Shown here piece by piece: positions 988 to 44,212 of a DNA stretch of 44,526 nt (position 1 is the first letter of the stretch; the number at the start of each line of letters is the position of its first letter). The position numbers and the translations under genes were made by a program. The stretch is from Escherichia phage vB_EcoP-101117UKE2: sequence record MZ234019.1. The stretch is one strand, 5' to 3'. The notes beneath the pieces are model-generated. The model did not search any database, was not told the DNA's origin, and worked only from the letters and a program-made list of their open reading frames with translations.

Positions 988-3615
988 ATGCAAGATCTAC
1001 ACGCTATTCAGCTTCAGCTTGAGGAAGAAATGTTTAACGGCGGTATTCGTCGCTTTGAAGCAGACCAACAACGCCAGATTGCATCAGGTAATGAATCCGA
1101 TACGGCATGGAATCGTCGCCTGTTGTCGGAGCTTATCGCACCTATGGCGGAAGGTATTCAGGCTTATAAGGAAGCCTACGAAGGCAAGAAAGGACGCGCA
1201 CCGCGTGCACTGGCCTTCATTAACTGCGTAGAGAACGAAGTGGCAGCATATATCACGATGAAGATCGTAATGGATATGCTTAACACGGATGTAACCTTGC
1301 AAGCCATAGCAATGAATGTAGCTGATCGCATCGAAGATCAAGTACGCTTCAGCAAGCTGGAAGGCCACGCCGCCAAATACTTTGAAAAAGTTAAGAAGTC
1401 ACTCAAGGCAAGTAAGACTAAATCATATCGCCATGCGCACAACGTAGCGGTAGTGGCTGAGAAGTCAGTAGCTGACCGTGACACTGATTTCTCCCGCTGG
1501 GAGGCGTGGCCTAAAGATACCTTACTGCAAATCGGTATGACCTTGCTAGAAATACTGGAGAATAGCGTATTCTTCAATGGTCAACCTGTCTTCCTCCGCA
1601 CCTTGCGCACTAATGGTGGCAAGCATGGTGTTTACTACTTACAGACCAGTGAGCACGTAGGGGAGTGGATTACAGCATTTAAAGAACATGTAGCGCAACT
1701 TAGTCCGGCCTATGCACCTTGCGTCATTCCTCCGCGCCCTTGGGTGTCCCCTTTTAATGGTGGGTTTCATACTGAGAAGGTGGCAAGTCGCATCCGTTTG
1801 GTAAAAGGCAACCGTGAGCACGTCCGTAAGCTGACCAAAAAGCAAATGCCAGCAGTTTATAAGGCTGTTAATGCTTTACAGGCCACTAAGTGGCAAGTTA
1901 ACAAAGAAGTTTTGCAGGTAGTAGAAGACGTTATCCGTCTCGACCTTGGTTATGGTGTACCTTCCTTTAAACCACTCATCGACCGCGAGAACAAGCCGGC
2001 TAACCCAGTGCCGTTAGAATTTCAACACTTGCGAGGCCGCGAACTGAAGGAAATGTTAACGCCGGAACAATGGCAAGCCTTCATCAACTGGAAAGGTGAA
2101 TGCACCAAGCTGTATACCGCTGAGACTAAGCGCGGAAGTAAGTCGGCGGCAACCGTTCGCATGGTAGGACAAGCGCGCAAATACAGCCAGTTTGATGCGA
2201 TTTATTTCGTGTATGCACTGGATAGCCGCTCACGCGTTTATGCGCAATCTAGCACACTCTCACCGCAATCAAACGACCTAGGCAAGGCGTTACTGCGTTT
2301 TACCGAAGGGCAGCCGCTAAATAGCTCTGAGGCGCTTAAATGGTTTTTGGTGAACGGGGCGAATAACTGGGGTTGGGATAAGAAGACTTTCGACGTGCGC
2401 ACCGCTAACGTACTGGACGGCGAGTTTCAAGATATGTGCCGCGACATTGCAGCGGATCCTCTGACCTTTACTCAATGGGTAAATGCCGATTCACCTTATG
2501 GATTCCTTGCATGGTGCTTTGAGTATGCTCGTTATTTGGATGCACTGGATGAAGGAACACAAGATCAGTTTGTGACGCATTTACCTGTTCATCAAGATGG
2601 TAGCTGTTCTGGCATCCAGCACTACAGTGCTATGCTACGCGACGAAGTGGGTGCGAAGGCGGTAAACCTTAAACCATCCGACTCGCCTCAAGATATTTAT
2701 GGAGCGGTTGCGCAGGTTGTTATCCAGAAGAACTACGCCTACATGAATGCAGATGATACAGAAACTTTCACATCTGGAAGCGTAACACTTACAGGTGCAG
2801 AACTGCGTAGCATGGCTAGTGCATGGGATATGATAGGTATCACTCGCGGCTTAACCAAAAAGCCGGTAATGACCTTGCCTTACGGATCCACACGCTTAAC
2901 CTGCCGTGAGTCAGTGATTGATTATATCGTTGATTTGGAAGAAAAAGAGGCACAAAGGGCTATTGCAGAAGGGCGGACGGCTAATCCGGTGCACCCTTTT
3001 GACAATGACCGGAAAGACTATTTAACACCGGGTGCAGCTTACAACTATATGACGGCGTTAATTTGGCCTTCTATCTCTGAGGTTGTTAAAGCCCCTATAG
3101 TGGCAATGAAAATGATTCGCCAGCTTGCACGTTTCGCAGCTAAAAGGGATGAAGGATTAGAATACACCTTGCCAACTGGCTTCATCCTGCAACAAAAGAT
3201 AATGGCTACCGATATGCTTCGTGTATCCACTTGCTTGATGGGTGAAATCAAGATGAGTCTACAAATTGAAACGGATGTAGTGGATGAAACGGCAATGATG
3301 GGCGCTGCCGCTCCTAACTTTGTTCACGGTCACGATGCTAGTCACCTTATATTAACGGTATGTGACCTAGTGGATAAAGGTATTACCTCCATTGCAGTTA
3401 TCCATGACTCTTTCGGTACTCATGCAGGCCGCACCGCAGACCTGCGGGATAGCTTAAGGGCAGAAATGGTGAAGATGTATCAAGGCCGTAACGCTTTACA
3501 ACAATTGCTTGATGAGCATGAAGAGCGTTGGCTAGTAGATACTGGCATCCAAGTGCCAGAGCAAGGGGAGTTTAACCTTGAAGAGATATTAGTTTCTGAC
3601 TATTGCTTCGCATAA
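988..3615 (+). CDS. single-subunit DNA-dependent RNA polymerase, SP6 type (875 aa)
   Basis: Near-full-length similarity to recalled SP6 RNAP sequence ([32 protein letters not shown]..., [22 protein letters not shown]); AGGAG RBS. Confidence 0.97.
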
Positions 3616-3623
3616 TATTGATA

Positions 3624-3653
3624 GGCCATTCCTTCGGGAGTGGCCTTTTCTTT
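3624..3653 (+). terminator. intrinsic terminator after RNAP gene (early terminator analogue)
   Basis: 9-bp stem GGCCATTCC/GGAGTGGCC with one G-U, TTCG loop, followed by TTTTCTTT. Confidence 0.6.
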
Positions 3654-3688
3654 ACCTATTACCTGTAACATTTCATTAACATAAACGT

Positions 3689-3704
3689 GTCTCACATGTG
3701 AGAC
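3689..3704. repeat. 16-bp perfect palindrome GTCTCACATGTGAGAC (copy 1)
   Basis: Exact self-complementary 16-mer immediately upstream of phage promoter. Confidence 0.9.
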
Positions 3705-3706
3705 TT

Positions 3707-3729
3707 ATTTACCGGACACTATAGGAGAG
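3707..3729 (+). promoter_or_regulatory. phage RNAP promoter ATTTACCGGACACTATAGGAGAG
   Basis: Match to SP6-type promoter core GACACTATAG; part of the genome-wide consensus here. Confidence 0.8.
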
Positions 3730-3871
3730 CCGTCGGAGACGGGAAAGAGAAGGGAAGATAAAGGATATAAAGGAAGTAATAGGTATTAAAGGTTATATAG
3801 GTTTACCTAGGAATACCTATTACCTTCTTCCTTCCTCTTATTACCACTTAGAGGAAGGGCAGATCTAGGTT
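3730..3871. other. AT-rich non-coding element between tandem phage promoters; candidate primary replication origin or structured leader
   Basis: No ATG in about 140 bp; long imperfect inverted repeat (AGGAAGTAATAGGTAT ... ATACCTATTACCTTCTTCCT); position right after RNAP gene. Confidence 0.4.
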
Positions 3872-3887
3872 GTCTCACATGTGAGAC
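3872..3887. repeat. 16-bp perfect palindrome GTCTCACATGTGAGAC (copy 2)
   Basis: Exact copy, 5 nt upstream of next promoter. Confidence 0.9.
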
Positions 3888-3892
3888 TTCGT

Positions 3893-3915
3893 ATTTACCG
3901 GACAGTATAGATAAG
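3893..3915 (+). promoter_or_regulatory. phage RNAP promoter variant ATTTACCGGACAGTATAGATAAG
   Basis: Consensus with C to G change in the CACTATA core (CAGTATA). Confidence 0.6.
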
Positions 3916-3940
3916 ACTAACTTACTTTGGAGATTTAACT

Positions 3941-4069
3941 ATGCGTAACCTAGAAAAGATTACCCGTAAAACTAAGCGTTTCGACATGGAAGAAGGGCAG
4001 ACTAAAGGCAAGAAGCTGAATAAACCTGTCCGTGACCGTGCATCTAAACGCGCTGCGTGGGAGTTCTAA
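3941..4069 (+). CDS. small basic hypothetical protein (42 aa)
   Basis: ATG with TGGAG RBS; MRNLEKITRKTKRFDMEEGQTKGKKLNKPVRDRASKRAAWEF; below ORF-track size cutoff. Confidence 0.35.
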   Translation: MRNLEKITRKTKRFDMEEGQTKGKKLNKPVRDRASKRAAWEF

Positions 4070-4072
4070 GTT

Positions 4073-6061
4073 ATGGCTATTATTCAGAATGTACCGTGTC
4101 CTGCCTGTCAAAAGAATGGACATGATATTACTGGCAACCATCTTATGATATTTGAGGATGGCGCTGGTTACTGTAATCGTGGTCACTTCCATGATAACGG
4201 TAAGCCTTACTATCATAAGCCAGAGGGCGGCATCGAGATAACCGAATTGCCCATTACTGGCAATATCAAATACACACCTTCTCAATTCAAAGAAATGGAG
4301 AAGGAAGGGAAGATAAGCGACCCTAAGCTACGCGCCATCGCACTAGGTGGTATGCGTATGAAAGACCGTTGGGAGGTCATGAATGAGCAAGAAAGGGCAG
4401 AGCAAGAAGCAGAGTGGAAACTTGATGTTGAATGGTTCCTCACGCTTAAGCGTAAGAATCTTGTTTCCCGACACATTCGCGGCGACATTTGCGCATTGTA
4501 TGATGTACGTGTCGGACATGATGAAGAGGGTAGAGTCTCACGGCATTACTATCCACGCTTCGAGAAAGGTGAACTAGTAGGCGCTAAGTGTCGCACATTA
4601 CCTAAAGACTTTAAGTTTGGTCATTTAGGTAAACTATTTGGTATGCAAGATCTTTTCGGTATGAATACTTTGTCTCACGTGTTAGACAAGGGAAGACGAA
4701 AGGATTGCTTGCTTATTGTGGGTGGGGAACTGGATGCACTAGCAGCGCAGCAGATGCTCCTTGATTCTGCCAAGGGTACTAAGTGGGAAGGGCAGCCTTA
4801 CCATGTATGGTCTGTCAATAAGGGTGAATCTTGCCTTGAAGAAATTGTGCAGAACCGTGAGCACATCGCCCAATTCAAGAAGATTATTTGGGGCTTTGAT
4901 GGGGATGAGGTAGGACAGAAGCAGAACCAACAAGCGGCTCGCCTGTTTCCTGGCAAATCCTACATCCTTGAATACCCTTCTGGTTGCAAAGATGCCAACA
5001 AGGCATTGATGGCTGGTAAAGCCAAAGAATTTGTGGATGCTTGGTTTAATGCAAAGCCATCTGATGAAGTCTTTGGTAGCCAGATTAAATCTATCGCATC
5101 TCAAAGGGATAAGCTCAAGGCTGCACGTCCAGAACAAGGGCTGTCATGGCCTTGGCCTAAGCTAAACAAGGTAACGCTGGGTATCCGTAAGAATCAGCTT
5201 ATCATTGTAGGTGCAGGCTCTGGTGTGGGTAAGACTGAGTTCCTCCGTGAAGTAGTTAAGCATCTCATTGAAGAACACGGTGAATCTGTAGGCATCATTT
5301 CTACAGAAGACCCGATGGTTAAGGTGTCCCGTGCTTTTATCGGTAAGTGGATTGATAAGCGTATTGAGCTACCGCCAACCAATGACCCGAAAGAAGATGG
5401 ATACCGTGAGGTGTTCGACTATACCGAGGAAGAGGCTAACGCTGCCATTGACTATGTAGCTGATACAGGGAAGCTGTTTGTGGCTGACCTAGAGGGTGAC
5501 TATTCAATGGAGAAGGTAGAGCAGACCTGCCTTGAGTTTGAGGCTATGGGTATTTCTAATATCATCATTGATAACTTAACGGGGATTAAATTAGATGAGC
5601 GTGCTTTTGGTGGGAAGGTTGGTGCACTTGATGAATGCGTCAAGCGGATTGGCACTATCAAGGACAGACATGCAGTTACTATCTTCCTTGTCTCGCACCT
5701 TACTCGCCCTGCGGGAAACCGAGTCCAACACGAAGAAGGTGGCGAGGTTATCCTTTCTGACTTCCGAGGCTCAGGGGCTATCGGATTCTGGGCATCTTAC
5801 GCCTTGGGGATTGAGCGTAACACAAGAGCTGAAACGCTTGACGAAAGGACTACCACGTACATCTCATGTGTCAAAGATCGCGACCAAGGTATCTTCACCG
5901 GAACCAAGATTATGCTTAAGGGTGACATTCAAACCGGACGTTTGAGAGAACCACAGGCTAGAACAAGGTCATTTGATACAGGCGAAGCAAGGCAACAAGA
6001 AGTACCGGATTTACCGGACACTATAGAAGAGACAACCTTTGATGATGAACAGGAGTTTTGA
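4073..6061 (+). CDS. DNA primase/helicase (T7 gp4-like, 662 aa)
   Basis: N-terminal Cys4 zinc ribbon (CPACQ...CNRGHFH), helicase Walker A GAGSGVGKT, acidic C-terminus ending DDEQEF. Confidence 0.95.
   Translation: MAIIQNVPCPACQKNGHDITGNHLMIFEDGAGYCNRGHFHDNGKPYYHKPEGGIEITELPITGNIKYTPSQFKEMEKEGKISDPKLRAIALGGMRMKDRWEVMNEQERAEQEAEWKLDVEWFLTLKRKNLVSRHIRGDICALYDVRVGHDEEGRVSRHYYPRFEKGELVGAKCRTLPKDFKFGHLGKLFGMQDLFGMNTLSHVLDKGRRKDCLLIVGGELDALAAQQMLLDSAKGTKWEGQPYHVWSVNKGESCLEEIVQNREHIAQFKKIIWGFDGDEVGQKQNQQAARLFPGKSYILEYPSGCKDANKALMAGKAKEFVDAWFNAKPSDEVFGSQIKSIASQRDKLKAARPEQGLSWPWPKLNKVTLGIRKNQLIIVGAGSGVGKTEFLREVVKHLIEEHGESVGIISTEDPMVKVSRAFIGKWIDKRIELPPTNDPKEDGYREVFDYTEEEANAAIDYVADTGKLFVADLEGDYSMEKVEQTCLEFEAMGISNIIIDNLTGIKLDERAFGGKVGALDECVKRIGTIKDRHAVTIFLVSHLTRPAGNRVQHEEGGEVILSDFRGSGAIGFWASYALGIERNTRAETLDERTTTYISCVKDRDQGIFTGTKIMLKGDIQTGRLREPQARTRSFDTGEARQQEVPDLPDTIEETTFDDEQEF
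6009..6031 (+). promoter_or_regulatory. phage RNAP promoter ATTTACCGGACACTATAGAAGAG embedded in 3' end of primase gene
   Basis: Full consensus match inside coding sequence. Confidence 0.75.
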
Positions 6062-6222
6062 TGGAAATTATTAAACCAGTATTGAATATCGGTATTGACA
6101 TCCTATTCATGCTTGTGATCGCAGATTATGCTGCACGATATGGATTCAAGAAAGCTGTGAAACTTATCGTTGCATCTGGTTTTCTTATGTCAATGTTCTT
6201 TATTGTAACACGCCTTATCTAG
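6061..6222 (+). CDS. small hydrophobic protein (53 aa), probable membrane protein
   Basis: ATG overlaps primase stop (TGATG); MEIIKPVLNIGIDILFMLVIADYAARYGFKKAVKLIVASGFLMSMFFIVTRLI. Confidence 0.4.
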   Translation: MEIIKPVLNIGIDILFMLVIADYAARYGFKKAVKLIVASGFLMSMFFIVTRLI

Positions 6223-6239: not shown

Positions 6240-6255
6240 GTCTCACATGTGAGAC
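6240..6255. repeat. 16-bp perfect palindrome GTCTCACATGTGAGAC (copy 3)
   Basis: Exact copy; flanking bases extend the potential stem. Confidence 0.9.
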
Positions 6256-6294: not shown

Positions 6295-6474
6295 ATGTAT
6301 AAATTAGTATTGAATGTAGGTGATTATGTTCGTAACATCAATGCAACCTCACGTAGATATCGTTGCCGTGGTACTGTGACTAATGTAAGTGAAAACAGCT
6401 ACTATGTAGAGTACAGTAATGGTATTAGACAGGCTTATCAAAAGGGAAAACAGCTACTATGTAGAGTACAGTAA
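6295..6474 (+). CDS. N-terminal fragment of hypothetical protein, truncated by frameshift from a 55-bp tandem duplication
   Basis: ATG 6295 with GGAGA RBS; ends ...ENSYYVEYSNGIRQAYQKG then out-of-frame stop. Confidence 0.5.
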   Translation: MYKLVLNVGDYVRNINATSRRYRCRGTVTNVSENSYYVEYSNGIRQAYQKGKQLLCRVQ

Positions 6475-6501
6475 TGGTATTAGACAGGCTTATCAAAAGG
6501 A
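6392..6501. repeat. perfect direct tandem duplication, 2 x 55 bp
   Basis: AAAACAGCTACTATGTAGAGTACAGTAATGGTATTAGACAGGCTTATCAAAAGG present twice back to back with period 55. Confidence 0.95.
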
Positions 6502-7072
6502 ATCAGCACATAACTACCTTGAGAAGATTGGAGAGGTAAGCAATCAATGTAAGTGCGTACACGATGAGATTTGCGATAAGTGTGCACGTCAGGCAGTTAA
6601 AGCCTTTACCTTTGCTCAACGTTATGGTTCTATGTATGGTGCTGGTCACAAGACCATTGTAGAAGCAGCTTGGAAGACATTACAGCTTGAGCGTTCAAAT
6701 GGACGACGCACCACACTTAAGAAAGAGCGCCGCAATGTAATCACTGGTAAGACTCAAAGTGAGATGGTTAAGCTGTGTGGCACGGCACTAGGTGTTACGC
6801 AGTTTAACACTCGTGCTTTAGGTAAATCCACAGGACAAGCTATGGTGAAGATTGGTGAGGCCATGATGCACCCAAATGTACCTGTGCGAATCATGGATGT
6901 TGACCATGCAATCACAGAACATGGTACAACACGGCGTGTAGTTAATAATCATTTTGCCGACACTATAGAAGATATTATCCGTAAGCAAGGATTGAAAGGT
7001 CTTCACATCTTAAATGGTGAAGAGTTGCTGTACCTTCCTATTGTTACCGAAGAAACCTACGTGAATATCTAA
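6419..7072 (+). CDS. hypothetical protein, C-terminal part of gene split by the 55-bp duplication (217-aa ORF as assembled)
   Basis: Re-encodes ENSYYVEYSNGIRQAYQK in the second repeat copy, then continues ESAHNYLEKIGEV...; intact gene about 242 aa if one copy is removed. Confidence 0.55.
   Translation: MVLDRLIKRENSYYVEYSNGIRQAYQKESAHNYLEKIGEVSNQCKCVHDEICDKCARQAVKAFTFAQRYGSMYGAGHKTIVEAAWKTLQLERSNGRRTTLKKERRNVITGKTQSEMVKLCGTALGVTQFNTRALGKSTGQAMVKIGEAMMHPNVPVRIMDVDHAITEHGTTRRVVNNHFADTIEDIIRKQGLKGLHILNGEELLYLPIVTEETYVNI
6951..6973 (+). promoter_or_regulatory. weak promoter-like site ATTTTGCCGACACTATAGAAGAT inside coding sequence
   Basis: Core CACTATAG with three upstream mismatches to consensus. 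Confidence 0.25.
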
Positions 7073-10193: not shown

Positions 10194-10376
10194 TGGATAG
10201 ATTAGATATTGTTTGCTTGTTCTTTACCTTCTTTCTTGTCTTTCTTATGCTTGCTTGTTATGGAAGTATTCAGGTAAATATACCTGATGAAGAGGAAGGG
10301 TACGACTGAGTTATACTCAAGGTCACTTACGAGTGGCCTTTATGAATAACTTACTCCTACTTATTTTGTCTAACAT

Positions 10377-10399
10377 GATTTACTGGACACTATAGAAGG
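10377..10399 (+). promoter_or_regulatory. phage RNAP promoter ATTTACTGGACACTATAGAAGGA
   Basis: Consensus match. Confidence 0.8.
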
Positions 10400-10464
10400 A
10401 AAGCCTAGGTAATCTAGGTTTATAAGGTAGTATAGGTAATTAAGTAAATATAGGAGATATAAAT

Positions 10465-10842
10465 ATGTCTATGGTAACTACTCTGGTATTCGTAGCTCAA
10501 TACTTTCGTGGCCTGGCTAATAAGTTTAAACAGAAAGCAATCTTTGCAATTCAAGAACGTATTAATAAAATTGAAGAAGAACAAGTAGATGTAGAGGAAC
10601 ATCGTAGTTCTCAGATGATTGACCTGCATAATCGTCTGTACAAAGATCGTGATGAGATGCGTCACCGTCATGCGAAGGAAGTTGAAGACATGCTTAACCG
10701 CCATGCGGAAGAACAAGCTAAGTTGGAAACCACTTTCCATGAGGATAAACGTAGCATCGCTCTAGCACATCAAGCTGCATCGGATAGCCTGAAGAAAGAG
10801 ATTGTTATGCTGGAGATTGAGTTAGACAATCTTACCAAATAA
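10465..10842 (+). CDS. hypothetical coiled-coil protein (125 aa)
   Basis: ATG with AGGAG RBS; charged heptad-like sequence. Confidence 0.65.
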   Translation: MSMVTTLVFVAQYFRGLANKFKQKAIFAIQERINKIEEEQVDVEEHRSSQMIDLHNRLYKDRDEMRHRHAKEVEDMLNRHAEEQAKLETTFHEDKRSIALAHQAASDSLKKEIVMLEIELDNLTK

Positions 10843-12552: not shown

Positions 12553-12576
12553 GTAATAGTTATTGGAGAATGAATT

Positions 12577-28481: not shown

Positions 28482-28498
28482 TGGTATACTCAAGGTTT

Positions 28499-28514
28499 GT
28501 CTCACATGTGAGAC
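28499..28514. repeat. 16-bp perfect palindrome GTCTCACATGTGAGAC (copy 6)
   Basis: Exact copy in the junction between internal virion protein genes. Confidence 0.9.
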
Positions 28515-28548
28515 ATGCCTTTATGAATGACACTGACTAGGAGGTAAC

Positions 28549-31500
28549 ATGGTTGATAGTATTAACCAAAACTGGGTGGCGGTGACTCAACGCAAGTTAC
28601 CGCCTACCTTCTCTCAAATTGCTGAAGCTGAGCGTAAGGCTGAAGCCCAGAGAGCTAATGATAAAGTGTTTCAAACAGCAATAGAAAGTGAGTGGGCTTT
28701 ATATGGCGGACAACGTGCCTATGAACGCCACACTACAGAGTTTGCTGAACAAGAAGGCTATGAAGTGCCTGAGTCAACTAAGGATGAGTTATCCAAGTTG
28801 TATGGGTATGAAATAGCGCAAGACATAGTTAAGAATGTAAAGTCTCCAGAAGAGTTGCAATTCCGTATGTCTAATGCTGCTGCTGATAAAGACAGAGCAG
28901 ACATCTTAGCACGTAATGGTTTCACGGGTTTCAGCGCGCAGATTGCTGCTGGCATCCTTGACCCTGTAGGTTGGGCTGCATCCTTAGTGGCTGCGCCTGT
29001 AGCGGGTGCTGTCAAAGTAGGTAGGCTAGGTAGGATTATCAAGACGGCTGCCTTATCAGGTGCTGAAAATGCTGCATTAGAAGCTATACTTGCACAAGGT
29101 GATTACCAGCGAGGGGTTGATGATGTACTGGCTGCTGCCGGATTTGGTATGATTATGGGCGGCACTATTGGTGCTGCAACCAGAGAGCGCATAGCCAGTG
29201 CTGGTTCTCGTACAGCGGCAGAACGAGCAGATGCTGTAGTTGATGACTTGGACACTGTAGTAAAAGGTGCTGATGAATTTGACTCGTCTGCGGCTCGTGC
29301 TGTACGTGAAGCTATGGAATATGACGCGTATATGGCAGCGCGTAATTACGAACCACTTCGTGCAAGAGAGGTAGATGCAGACATGGCGATTCTGTCTCAC
29401 ACAGATAATTTGAAAGCCAATGCATCGGTAAGGATGAGTGCTAGTGAGAAAGGGCAACTGAAGAAGCAGATACGTCAGCTTGAAGCAGAAGCAGCAACAC
29501 TTAAAGGGAAGAAGATAGACACTGTAGCGGAAGCTGCGGCTGCTAAGGGTGCACCTAAATCTGCTGCTGACAGATTAGATTTGGATGTTCAGAAGAAAGC
29601 ATTAGCACGTAGATTTGATGAACCACTGGCAGACTTACAAGCGCGTCTTGATGAGTTGAATGCTAAATTGTCTCGTGTAAACAATGTAGGCAAAGCCAAG
29701 GAAGAGCTTAAGAGATTCTCATCGCTATCTCGTGAAGAGCAAATAAAGGAGTTAGGTCTAGACGCACCAGTGCGCAAGGTAGAGATGACCCGTGCCGTGC
29801 GAGATGCAATTGACGCAATCCGTGCCGAGCGTAAGAAGACGCCTACCGAAATACATGCTGAACAAGTCGCAGAAGATGCAATTAAGCAAAGGGCAGACGA
29901 CTCTGTTGGTGCTAAACGTGTTGAAGGTTCAGAGATTGCAGGTGAACAGTTTGACCTATCTAAAAACATGGAAGAACTTATGGATGACTTGGCACGAGAA
30001 GCATACCAGTCAGAGGTGCGGCCTATTAATCTTAAGGGTTTAGGTTCAGTGTCTTCTGTGATTCTTAACTCAGAGAATCCTGTGTTCCGAGGCCTAGGTC
30101 TTCGTCTGCTTGAAAATGCTCAAGGTGGTGCATATCAAGGTAAGACAGCTTCTATCTTATCAGATGTGTATGGCAACCTTATTCGTCATGCAGAACGTAA
30201 CAGATACAATGATGGCTTCTCTCAGTTCATCAAAGATAATAACCTACGTGCGGTAGATTATCTTAACCCTGCAACGACAAGGGATTTCAATAATCAGATT
30301 TATACAGCAATTGTTCGTGGCATACCAGAAGATACACCTCGTGGTGTTAAACTGGCAGCCGAAGGTATTGCAGATAAGCTCAAGAAAGCACTGGAGATTC
30401 GTAAGCAAGCAGGTGAGCGAGGCTTCGAGGATGTGCAATCTGCTAAAGATTATATTCCCGTTATCTACGATGGTATCAAGATCACAGAGGCAGTTAACAA
30501 GTTAGGTAGTAGTGAAGCTGTCATTCACTTGCTATCTAAAGGGTATCAGACAGGCAAGTACAAACTTGGCAAGAAAGCTGCTGATGCACTAGCCAAAGTT
30601 CAGTATATTCGCGCATCTGACTCCACCCTCTCTAGTCGTGTTGCATTCGATAGAGTAGTATCCCAGCAGCAGCAGGCTCAATTGATTGAGGATCTGAAGA
30701 AAGCAGGAGTACCAGACCATATCATTGATAATTTCATTGAAGGTACGGAATTAGCAGAAATGGCTGAATCGGTATCCAATCGAGCTAAAGCTAGCATGGG
30801 TATTAATACGCAAGCCGAATATGGCGGTTTGAAGGTGCAGGATTTGCTTAATACAAACGTAGGCGAGCTAGCTGAGAACTACGGCAAAGAGGCAGCAGGC
30901 GGTGCTGCATTAGCTGCCATGGGTTTCCCCACTCGCCAGTCTGTGCTGAATGCGATAGATGCCGCAGAACGCGCAGGTCGTAATATGGCGGGGTCAAATG
31001 CTAAGGCAATCAAACAGCTTAGAGCTGAGGCAGAAATGCTCAGAGATGCCGTTAAGCTCATTTACGGCAACACTATTGACGCCGACCCTAACTCTGGAAT
31101 TGTCAGAGGCACTCGACGTGTCCGTGAGATTACAGGCTTGTTACGATTGGGTCAAATGGGCTTCGCTCAGATACCAGAACTGGCACGTGCAATCTCTAAG
31201 ATGGGATTAGGTACTGTGCTGAAGTCCATACCTGCCACGAAGTTCTTACGTTCAAGGGCGGCTCGTAAGGGAGGAACAGCTCAAGGTGAATTACTTGAAC
31301 CTGAACTGCGAGAAATGGAGGAACTCTTAGGCTATATCGGGGAAGATAACTGGCTTACAGGGTGGAACGTCCGTCATGATGAGTTCGGAGAAACTGCTGA
31401 TAACCTAGGTAAGCTGTCTGCTATTATTGATAACGGATTAGCTATGGGTAGTAGAATCAACACAATACTCTCTGGATTTAAAGCAGTACAAGGTGGTTCA

Positions 31501-37808: not shown

Positions 37809-37831
37809 ATTTACTGGACACTATAGGAGGA
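37809..37831 (+). promoter_or_regulatory. phage RNAP promoter ATTTACTGGACACTATAGGAGGA with AT-rich structured leader
   Basis: Consensus match; followed by about 130-nt AT-rich leader sharing motifs with 3730-3871. Confidence 0.8.
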
Positions 37832-37965
37832 AGACCAAGAGAATAAAGGAATATTATAGGATAATATAGGATTACCTAGGTTATATAGGTATACCTTAGT
37901 ATGGGGTGTACTCCTGTACACCCTATTCCTACTTACTATTTACTTATACGTATAAGGAGTATTAG

Positions 37966-42416: not shown

Positions 42417-42790
42417 TTCGTTTCGCTAACGCTCCACTCACAAGCCTGACGTGTACCTTAGTTATTACCTTAGGTTATTCCTTGATGGATAGCTTAGGTT
42501 AACCTGAGTGGATTACCTTAGTTAAAGCCTTAGTGCTTAGCTTAGTATCAGCTTAGTAGTGTACCTTAGTCAGACTTAGTGTCTTCTCTTAGTGATTGCA
42601 CATGCAAGCATGTAAGATGCCATTAGGTCGCGGTCGGTAGACCGCTAAGAAGAAATAATAGTAATAAGATGCAGTAGGAGGAACACCAGAAACCTGGCCA
42701 ACCTAGCCTATCCTAGCTCTGTATCTATTGCTTTTCCTTAGTCTAACACGTTAGACAACCTATCTTATTCTTAGTGATGGTAACTTAGTG

Positions 42791-44098: not shown

Positions 44099-44212
44099 AT
44101 GGAAAAGCAATATAACTTTATCTTTTCAGACGGTGTGACCCTGAAGTGTTCCCTGCGTTTCGCGCAGATTCGCGAGGAAGTGCTAGGAACTACATACAAA
44201 CTATTTAGCTGA
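44099..44212 (+). CDS. small hypothetical protein (37 aa)
   Basis: ATG just after ocr stop; overlaps downstream promoter; weak. Confidence 0.25.
   Translation: MEKQYNFIFSDGVTLKCSLRFAQIREEVLGTTYKLFS

Follow-up and report, generated by a model that had tools for sequence, protein, structure and literature searches.

A promoter-led array of AGG repeats at the position of the T7 primary origin in an SP6/K1-5-group phage: a possible transcription-activated replication origin

The window, by which we mean the whole stretch of 44,526 nucleotides analysed here, is the genome of Escherichia phage vB_EcoP-101117UKE2 (MZ234019.1), a Vectrevirus (Autographiviridae, subfamily Molineuxvirinae) of the K1-5/K1E/SP6 supergroup, and it has exactly the sequence of Escherichia phage vB_EcoP-101118B1 (MZ234020.1, a complete genome). 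The interval under study (3689-3915) follows the ORF of the phage RNA polymerase (988-3615, + strand, 875 aa) and a rho-independent terminator at 3623..3655 (+ strand; a 10-bp GC-rich stem, then a T run), which would end the early (RNA polymerase) transcription unit, is annotated in the identical phage MK373771 and is kept in all relatives compared. Two predicted phage promoters point rightward from there: promoter A (3707-3724, + strand; +1 = G at 3724), an exact match to the consensus, and promoter B (3893-3910, + strand; +1 = G at 3910), whose one mismatch is a conserved non-consensus G at position 13. The pattern that defines them, ATTTACCGGACA[C/G]TATAG, has 13 matches genome-wide against 0.02 expected, and both promoters of the initial annotation, at 3707 and 3893, are recovered by it. 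The original SP6 and K1-5 genome papers may already mention the tandem promoters. Promoter B leaves a 30-nt leader before a gene 1.1 homolog (3941..4069, + strand, 42 aa; Pfam PF08200 Phage_1_1, E = 1.6e-14) that has no annotation in the phage's own GenBank record and is annotated in MK373771 and K1-5; the primase-helicase gene (4073-6061, + strand) comes next.

This arrangement has a close parallel in T7, where phi1.1A (5848) and phi1.1B (5923) precede gene 1.1 (6007); promoter A is the positional equivalent of the former and promoter B of the latter. T7 replication starts at phi1.1A/phi1.1B, secondary origins include phiOR and phi6.5, and the essential element of T7 origins is the phage promoter (PMC8373140). 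The RNA polymerase gene, the tandem promoters and the gene 1.1 homolog together uphold the earlier suggestion that the interval occupies the position of the T7 primary origin; judged from sequence and gene order, it is probably the homologous K1-5/SP6-group counterpart of the phi1.1A–phi1.1B locus. The K1-5 counterpart is found ~14% of the way in from the left end, at ~6.0-6.2 kb of the 44.4-kb record.

Between the promoters, the + strand carries seven AGG motifs within 3751..3811, which we regard as a candidate unwinding element. The motifs start at 3751, 3762, 3771, 3781, 3790, 3799 and 3809 (spacing 11, 9, 10, 9, 9 and 10 nt; mean ~9.7 bp), the unit consensus is ~wTAGGTArT, and the top strand of the array is nearly C-free. 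A pyrimidine tract with inverted array units follows (3812..3845, + strand); one of its units, at 3814-3825, is identical to TACCTATTACCT at 3653..3664 (+ strand), upstream of promoter A, a site at which the SP6-group loci keep CCTATTACCTG. The interval had initially been described as AT-rich and free of start codons. The second description is accurate: the + strand has no ATG, GTG or TTG in 3725-3871 and no ORF of at least 20 aa, and only a 23-aa GTG ORF is found on the - strand. The first applies to a 100-bp core (68-69% A+T, 99th percentile) and less so to the 147 bp overall (59.9% A+T vs 55% for the genome). The distinctive features of the interval go beyond plain AT-richness and are C depletion, purine richness and the phased AGG repeats: the array core has a single C in 70 nt, where the mean is 13.8, and its purine count (57/70) is the genome maximum, at ~4.5 SD. 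In T7, the leaders of phiOL, phi1.1B and phiOR are among the most C-poor windows of the genome.

Duplex stability was scanned in 70-bp windows with provisional nearest-neighbour parameters, the resulting ranking mainly reflecting A+T and TA-step content. The weakest four windows of this genome start at 10410, 6261, 37832 and 3755 (the last being the 4th), and three of them correspond to the leaders behind promoters 10378, 37809 and 3707. The weakest four in T7 (418, 18565, 5938 and 39244) are the leaders of phiOL, phi6.5, phi1.1B and phiOR, so that looking for the weakest 70 bp right after a phage promoter is enough to place the T7 origin-associated leaders 1st to 4th. In SP6 the weakest four start at 12574, 12256, 37882 and 6159, with the orthologous leaders, three in all, in 1st, 3rd and 4th place. 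Judged by these rankings, T7, SP6 and the present phage share one signature: a phage promoter with the weakest DNA of the genome behind it. R-loop propensity (RNA:DNA hybrid minus duplex energy) was tried as a signature and set aside, the locus being 3rd here and the SP6 ortholog and the T7 origins unremarkable. GC skew is monotonic along the genome and uninformative on the origin.

The array is not confined to this locus. Chains of at least five AGG motifs at 8-11-nt spacing occur exactly three times genome-wide (3751, 10397 and 37847) against 0.01 in shuffled sequence, and all three are on the + strand and start within ~30 nt after the +1 of a phage promoter. The second promoter-plus-array unit (10378..10465, + strand) follows the DNA polymerase gene, and its array extends into the ribosome-binding site that serves the ORF at 10466; the third (37809..37965, + strand) lies directly after the terminase large-subunit gene and is the positional equivalent of T7 phiOR. 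The related leader that had been noticed after the promoter at 37809 is thereby confirmed, and joined by the one at 10378. SP6 has arrays at all three orthologous promoters (6118, 12542 and 37773), and Proteus phage Pm5460 has the post-polymerase (6637) and post-terminase (38781) arrays and lacks the post-DNA-polymerase one. Elsewhere in the genome, a 12-bp repeat, TACCTTAGTTAT (the inverse of TAAGGTA), forms an array of its own at 42454-42570, close to where the physical left end is predicted; T7 has short repeats close to its genome ends.

Conservation in relatives, which the initial annotation had named as a check, speaks for the interval. Among loci drawn from IMG/VR, metagenomes and GenBank, the order of the parts is identical throughout, with the palindrome and the second promoter, where present, in the same places. 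The layout is common to Vectrevirus, SP6 and other Zindervirus, Klebsiella-phage, Proteus Acadevirus and lineages at ~75% RNA polymerase identity, and the tandem promoters are kept in the SP6, Klebsiella-phage and Proteus-phage lineages. Among 14 Vectrevirus genomes, nucleotide diversity across the noncoding interval is 0.00-0.06, or ~0.04 (array 0.041, pyrimidine tract 0.036), and promoter A has a pi of 0.008 among the 14 relatives; third codon positions in the two genes that flank it, those for RNA polymerase and primase, have a pi of 0.29-0.30. The noncoding interval, with ~7x less diversity than these positions, is thus under strong purifying selection.

By analogy with T7, we tentatively propose that the interval works as a T7-type transcription-activated replication origin, a reading to which we give somewhat less than an even chance. 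Phage RNA polymerase would start at promoter A (+1 at 3724) and cross the 60-70-bp array of ~9.7-bp AGG repeats, whose non-template strand is nearly C-free; in the DNA opened by transcription, the transcript could prime the phage DNA polymerase and/or the opened strand could load the primase-helicase, and synthesis would proceed rightward, with a leftward fork primed on the displaced strand. What we observe is the position, the promoter matches, the composition, the weak duplex, the conservation and the T7 benchmark; any replication function is inferred from these. The candidate origin of the initial annotation gains from synteny, the weak duplex and purifying selection; it loses the qualifier "primary", promoters 10378 and 37809 being followed by the same repeat array, and the palindromes as its landmarks. 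Two or three promoter-plus-array units of this kind probably exist, at 3707, at 37809 and, in certain lineages, at 10378; together they would parallel the T7 primary origin and its phiOR-type secondary origins. Candidate components of initiation were sought nearby. The SP6 primase recognises 5'-GCA-3' (PMC2034472), and the displaced strand has a single GCA at 3859-3861, no more than chance predicts; three lineages (L015, L016 and L265) lack it. A Pfam scan of six ORFs, of which four lie close to the locus (1-924, gene 1.1, primase-helicase and 6061-6222), gave no initiator-like domain; the only replication domains among the six belong to the primase-helicase.

Alternatively, the interval might act at the RNA level, as a structured leader of the promoter-A transcript or a module for its processing, and as a counterpart of T7 R1.1. 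We consider this less likely than an origin but the most serious of the rivals to it; the two roles would be compatible. The 5' stem-loop would then protect the 5' end, a long AGG/CCU hairpin (~30 bp, with an internal loop) and/or a palindrome hairpin would be cut by RNase III or stabilise a 3' end, and expression of gene 1.1 and the primase-helicase would be tuned. The evidence for such a role includes the 16-bp palindrome GTCTCACATGTGAGAC, which had been reported on each side of the interval and is indeed there: copy 1 (3689..3704, + strand) ends 2 bp upstream of promoter A, and copy 2 (3872..3887, + strand), with a pi of 0.000 among relatives, ends 5 bp upstream of promoter B. The palindrome is not specific to the candidate origin: it is a dispersed family of 8 copies genome-wide (0.16 expected), some of them in RNase III-like sites. 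The copy at 28499 serves as upper stem in a T7-type RNase III-like site, CTCAAGGTT-palindrome-ATGCCTTTATGA, and the copies at 6240 and 7506 extend to 13-bp intergenic hairpins that are also RNase III-like; a canonical T7-type site with another upper stem lies at 10316-10350. Relatives point in the same direction. At the orthologous places, SP6 palindromes read GTCYAAC-NN-GTTGGAC (the orthologue of copy 1 differs in sequence, GTCCAACGTGTTGGAC), and 6/9 copies carry a T...G imperfection, that is, a U·G wobble in + strand RNA; in the Proteus phage the centre of the palindrome is 3 nt long, not 2, which a hairpin would tolerate more readily than a dimer-binding site. We therefore read the palindromes as a dispersed hairpin family whose sequences fit RNA processing or 3'-end stabilisation and which happen to precede promoters, at a spacing of 2-9 bp; the T7 RNase III sites R1.1 and R4.7 likewise precede promoters. 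Two other identities for the palindrome were rejected: a T7-type primase site (GTGTC), because the SP6-group primase recognises GCA, and a CRP/LexA/PurR-like operator, because of the 2-9-bp promoter spacing and a centre length that differs by lineage. The literature searched, with the original genome papers outside it, holds no RNase III or palindrome data for SP6/K1-5 phages.

The promoter-A transcript opens with a predicted 5' stem-loop (3730..3742, + strand; CCGTC-GGA-GACGG), a 5-bp stem with a GNA triloop closed by C-G. Its third pair is G-C, A-T, T-A or C-G by lineage and always paired, and the loop is GAA instead of GGA in two lineages. Sequence comparison thus marks the stem-loop as a conserved, covarying RNA structure, and its covariation shows that the promoter-A transcript itself is under selection, as an RNA-level role would have it. 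It looks like an ordinary 5' stabiliser, however, because most other promoters here also give transcripts whose starts, as we read the sequence, can form a hairpin. Exact-pattern scans of IMG/VR with the stem-loop sequence returned mostly unrelated contigs and no further relatives. The initial annotation had held that a conserved RNA in the interval would speak against an origin; such an RNA is present in part, in that the 5' stem-loop covaries and the long hairpin does not.

That long hairpin corresponds to the imperfect inverted repeat that had been noted and that we also find (3745-3839, with arms 3770-3787/3812-3829 and 3745-3758/3826-3839), its 3' arm being the pyrimidine tract. Several features of it are consistent with an RNA-level role. 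The T7 segment between phi1.1A and phi1.1B, at the matching position, folds well (z = -2.9); we take this segment to be the RNase III site R1.1, which Dunn and Studier (1983) reportedly found to be cut at 5887. Within the pyrimidine tract, ACCTTCTTCC (3822-3831) is invariant among Vectrevirus and occurs on the + strand once here and once in T7, in the same relative place between the tandem promoters. All AGG arrays are sense-oriented in the transcripts, and the fold z-score is negative in 12/13 lineages (+0.05 to -4.8, median ~-2). The array at 10378 adjoins a ribosome-binding site, which suggests a leader-RNA role and counts against the origin reading. The description of the interval as a structured element nevertheless stands only in part: the inverted repeat is there, and folding is just modestly better than in shuffled sequence (RNA z = -2.2, DNA z = -1.8), with two lineages folding no better than shuffled (L265, z = 0.05; L013, z = -0.75). 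The pyrimidine tract can pair either with the array or with AGAGGAAGG (3850-3858), and the latter pairing, an alternative hairpin CCTTCCTCT...AGAGGAAGG at 3830..3858 (+ strand), is in the minimum-energy fold and would form at the expense of the long hairpin's lower stem; the folds of other lineages contain a comparable pyrimidine-loop-purine hairpin.

The comparison between relatives also speaks against a maintained long helix. Among 14 distinct Vectrevirus sequences, 0/29 pairs of the long hairpin show a compensatory change, the changes being few and one-sided, and in a cross-lineage duplex test the 5' and 3' arms of the same phage pair no better than arms of different phages. A specifically maintained long helix was dropped on these grounds. 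The complementarity is generic, since direct AGG-type units precede inverted CCT-type units. The hairpin also lacks the flanks of the phage's own RNase III sites, CTCAAGG...GCCTTTATGA (in RNA, CUCAAGG-upper stem-GCCUUUAUGA), which are present at 10316-10350 and 28489-28530; this T7-type frame is absent from 3724-3892. An Rfam scan of 3500-4100 gave no family match, the best hits being sub-threshold microRNA-precursor models (22.8 bits vs an 85-bit threshold), of the unspecific kind that long hairpins attract. The motifs avoid GGAG, which on our reading of the sequence is the Shine-Dalgarno actually used by the phage, and a Shine-Dalgarno/CsrA sponge was rejected because of this avoidance, because the units are mostly AGGU, not GGA/GGAG, and because the stem-loop has GAA for GGA in two lineages. 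With motif and spacing conserved and the helix not covarying, a role at the DNA level or in sequence recognition fits better than a simple RNA helix.

Such recognition could also serve a purpose other than initiation. The AGG units (~TAGGTA) might be binding sites of a sequence-specific protein, from phage or host, for promoter-proximal transcription control or for concatemer processing and packaging, with arrays placed at promoter leaders and inverted arrays near the genome end. The motif and its ~10-bp phasing are kept across lineages while the surroundings diverge, inverted units both flank promoter A and follow the array, one array lies after the terminase gene at the phiOR-equivalent position, and the TACCTTAGTTAT array near the predicted left end is reminiscent of the end-proximal repeats of T7. 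We nevertheless consider this explanation improbable: no candidate binding protein was found, the motif is short and degenerate, its mean spacing of ~9.7 bp is below the B-DNA helical repeat, and the Proteus phage does without the post-DNA-polymerase array. It is similarly doubtful that the TAGGTA/AGG arrays form a dedicated, sequence-specific origin module, iteron-like and recognised, either in the DNA itself or in a nascent R-loop, by some phage or host factor such as the primase-helicase or the small basic gene 1.1 product. Such a module would mark the two or three transcription-activated origins, and its inverted copies near the genome end would link initiation to end processing. If it did exist, it would add a layer of sequence recognition that is unknown in T7, where a promoter and AT-rich DNA suffice. 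Finally, it is very improbable that the arrays have no dedicated function and are conserved module-boundary "linkers", kept by recombination between co-infecting phages or by promoter hitch-hiking: their occurrence where modules meet (behind the genes for RNA polymerase, DNA polymerase and terminase), and the unit-sized indels and extra promoter seen in the interval of two relatives (L253 and L256), would suit this, but diversity is 7-fold below that of third codon positions across the whole 300 bp, motif and phasing persist to ~75% RNA polymerase identity, and the region is the compositional extreme of the genome.

The reading that we favour, a transcription-activated origin, would matter for a group of phages that is widely isolated for phage therapy and is the source of SP6 RNA polymerase. 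T7 origins have been mapped experimentally; those of the SP6/K1-5 group have not, as far as the literature searched shows, which holds no replication data or origin assignment for these phages and did not extend to the original genome papers. The present analysis names three candidate units for testing (3707, 37809 and 10378). If the arrays turn out to be indispensable for initiation, the T7 model, "promoter plus AT-rich DNA", would be refined, and they would provide a handle to engineer or attenuate these phages.

How far the analogy with T7 carries can be judged feature by feature. Like the T7 primary origin, the locus occupies the slot between the RNA polymerase gene and gene 1.1, has two tandem rightward promoters and a promoter-proximal segment that is among the least stable and most C-poor of its genome, and carries ACCTTCTTCC between the promoters. 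There are also a number of key differences: (i), the segment presumed to melt lies between the promoters here, whereas that of T7 follows the second promoter; (ii), the space between the T7 promoters holds an RNase III site and here holds the AGG array, which consists of phased 9-10-bp repeats where T7 has plain AT-rich DNA; (iii), the promoter spacer is 186 bp here vs 75 bp in T7; (iv), the RNA polymerase gene has a rho-independent terminator immediately behind it here; and (v), the array recurs at the phiOR-equivalent position. The extra units resemble the T7 secondary origins (phiOR, phi6.5 and phiOL) in pairing a promoter with a weak duplex, one of them right after the terminase large-subunit gene; the extra units here carry the repeat motif of the post-polymerase unit.

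Two further systems bear comparison. As in T7 R1.1, the interval lies between tandem promoters and a purine-rich 5' segment can pair with an CCUUCUUCC-type pyrimidine tract upstream of the second promoter; unlike R1.1, its hairpin has no CUCAAGG...GCCUUUAUGA frame, is much longer and shows no covariation. With the iterons and unwinding elements of plasmids, lambda and oriC, it shares short phased direct and inverted repeats in easily melted DNA beside replication genes. The units here, however, are just 9-10 bp, and activation would presumably come from transcription, as in T7, and not from an initiator.

The interval between the RNA polymerase gene and the gene 1.1 homolog differs in some relatives, either in its promoters or in the array of phased AGG motifs that lies between phage promoters A and B. 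Within a pair of metagenomic relatives (L256 778-1009 and L253 1612-1838), one has an additional, third phage promoter in the segment separating A from B; in the other, the array contains a 10-bp duplication (CTAGGAATAC) that corresponds to one unit, indicating that the array changes by whole units. Variation also affects the downstream flank: in L014, L015, L018, L023 and VEc3 (H26), gene 1.1 is separated from the primase-helicase gene by an inserted HNH homing-endonuclease gene, so that insertions appear to favour this junction as a hotspot. Gene 1.1 itself (3941-4069 (+), PF08200) is missing from the annotation of the identical genome MZ234020, which instead lists two short minus-strand "hypothetical proteins" at 3600-3695 (-) and 3922-4011 (-). 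These calls overlap the terminator and gene 1.1, respectively, and they look spurious.

The 16-bp palindrome that occurs near both promoters is also found within the primase-helicase ORF (4672-4687), at a position conserved in SP6 (L249 7071-7086). This copy is a hybrid, its left half (GTCTCAC) being of the K1-5 type and its right half (GTTAGAC) SP6-like, which suggests concerted evolution of the entire palindrome family between the K1-5 and SP6 groups. The palindrome further serves as the upper stem of one of two T7-type RNase III-like sites, at 28489-28530; the other, at 10316-10350, has a T7-type upper stem (GGTCACTTACGAGTGGCC). Both are framed as CTCAAGG-hairpin-GCCTTTATGA and have SP6 orthologs, at 30560 and 12233, respectively. 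Separately, a near-perfect tandem duplication (55-bp unit, 2.1 copies, 98% identity) is present at 6387-6500, within the annotated ORF 6295-7017.

When the T7 genome is scanned for duplex stability in 70-bp windows (nearest-neighbour parameters), the lowest four values fall on windows starting at 418, 18565, 5938 and 39244; these are the leaders of phiOL, phi6.5, phi1.1B and phiOR, respectively. Such a simple scan may be usable as an origin predictor in T7-like phages.

Compared with K1-5, in which the RNA polymerase gene begins at 3301 instead of 988, the sequence of this record is circularly permuted, which places the physical ends and the early region at about 42.2-44.5 kb of the window, the promoter-like site at 44203 being part of the early left region. 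Approximately 10 copies of a 12-bp repeat (TACCTTAGTTAT), an inverted form of the array unit TAAGGTA, are present at 42454-42570 (and 42700-42760), close to where the physical left end of the genome is predicted, followed by a degenerate copy of the palindrome at 42741. The T7 genome also has short repeats near its ends, and the repeats found here are reminiscent of them.
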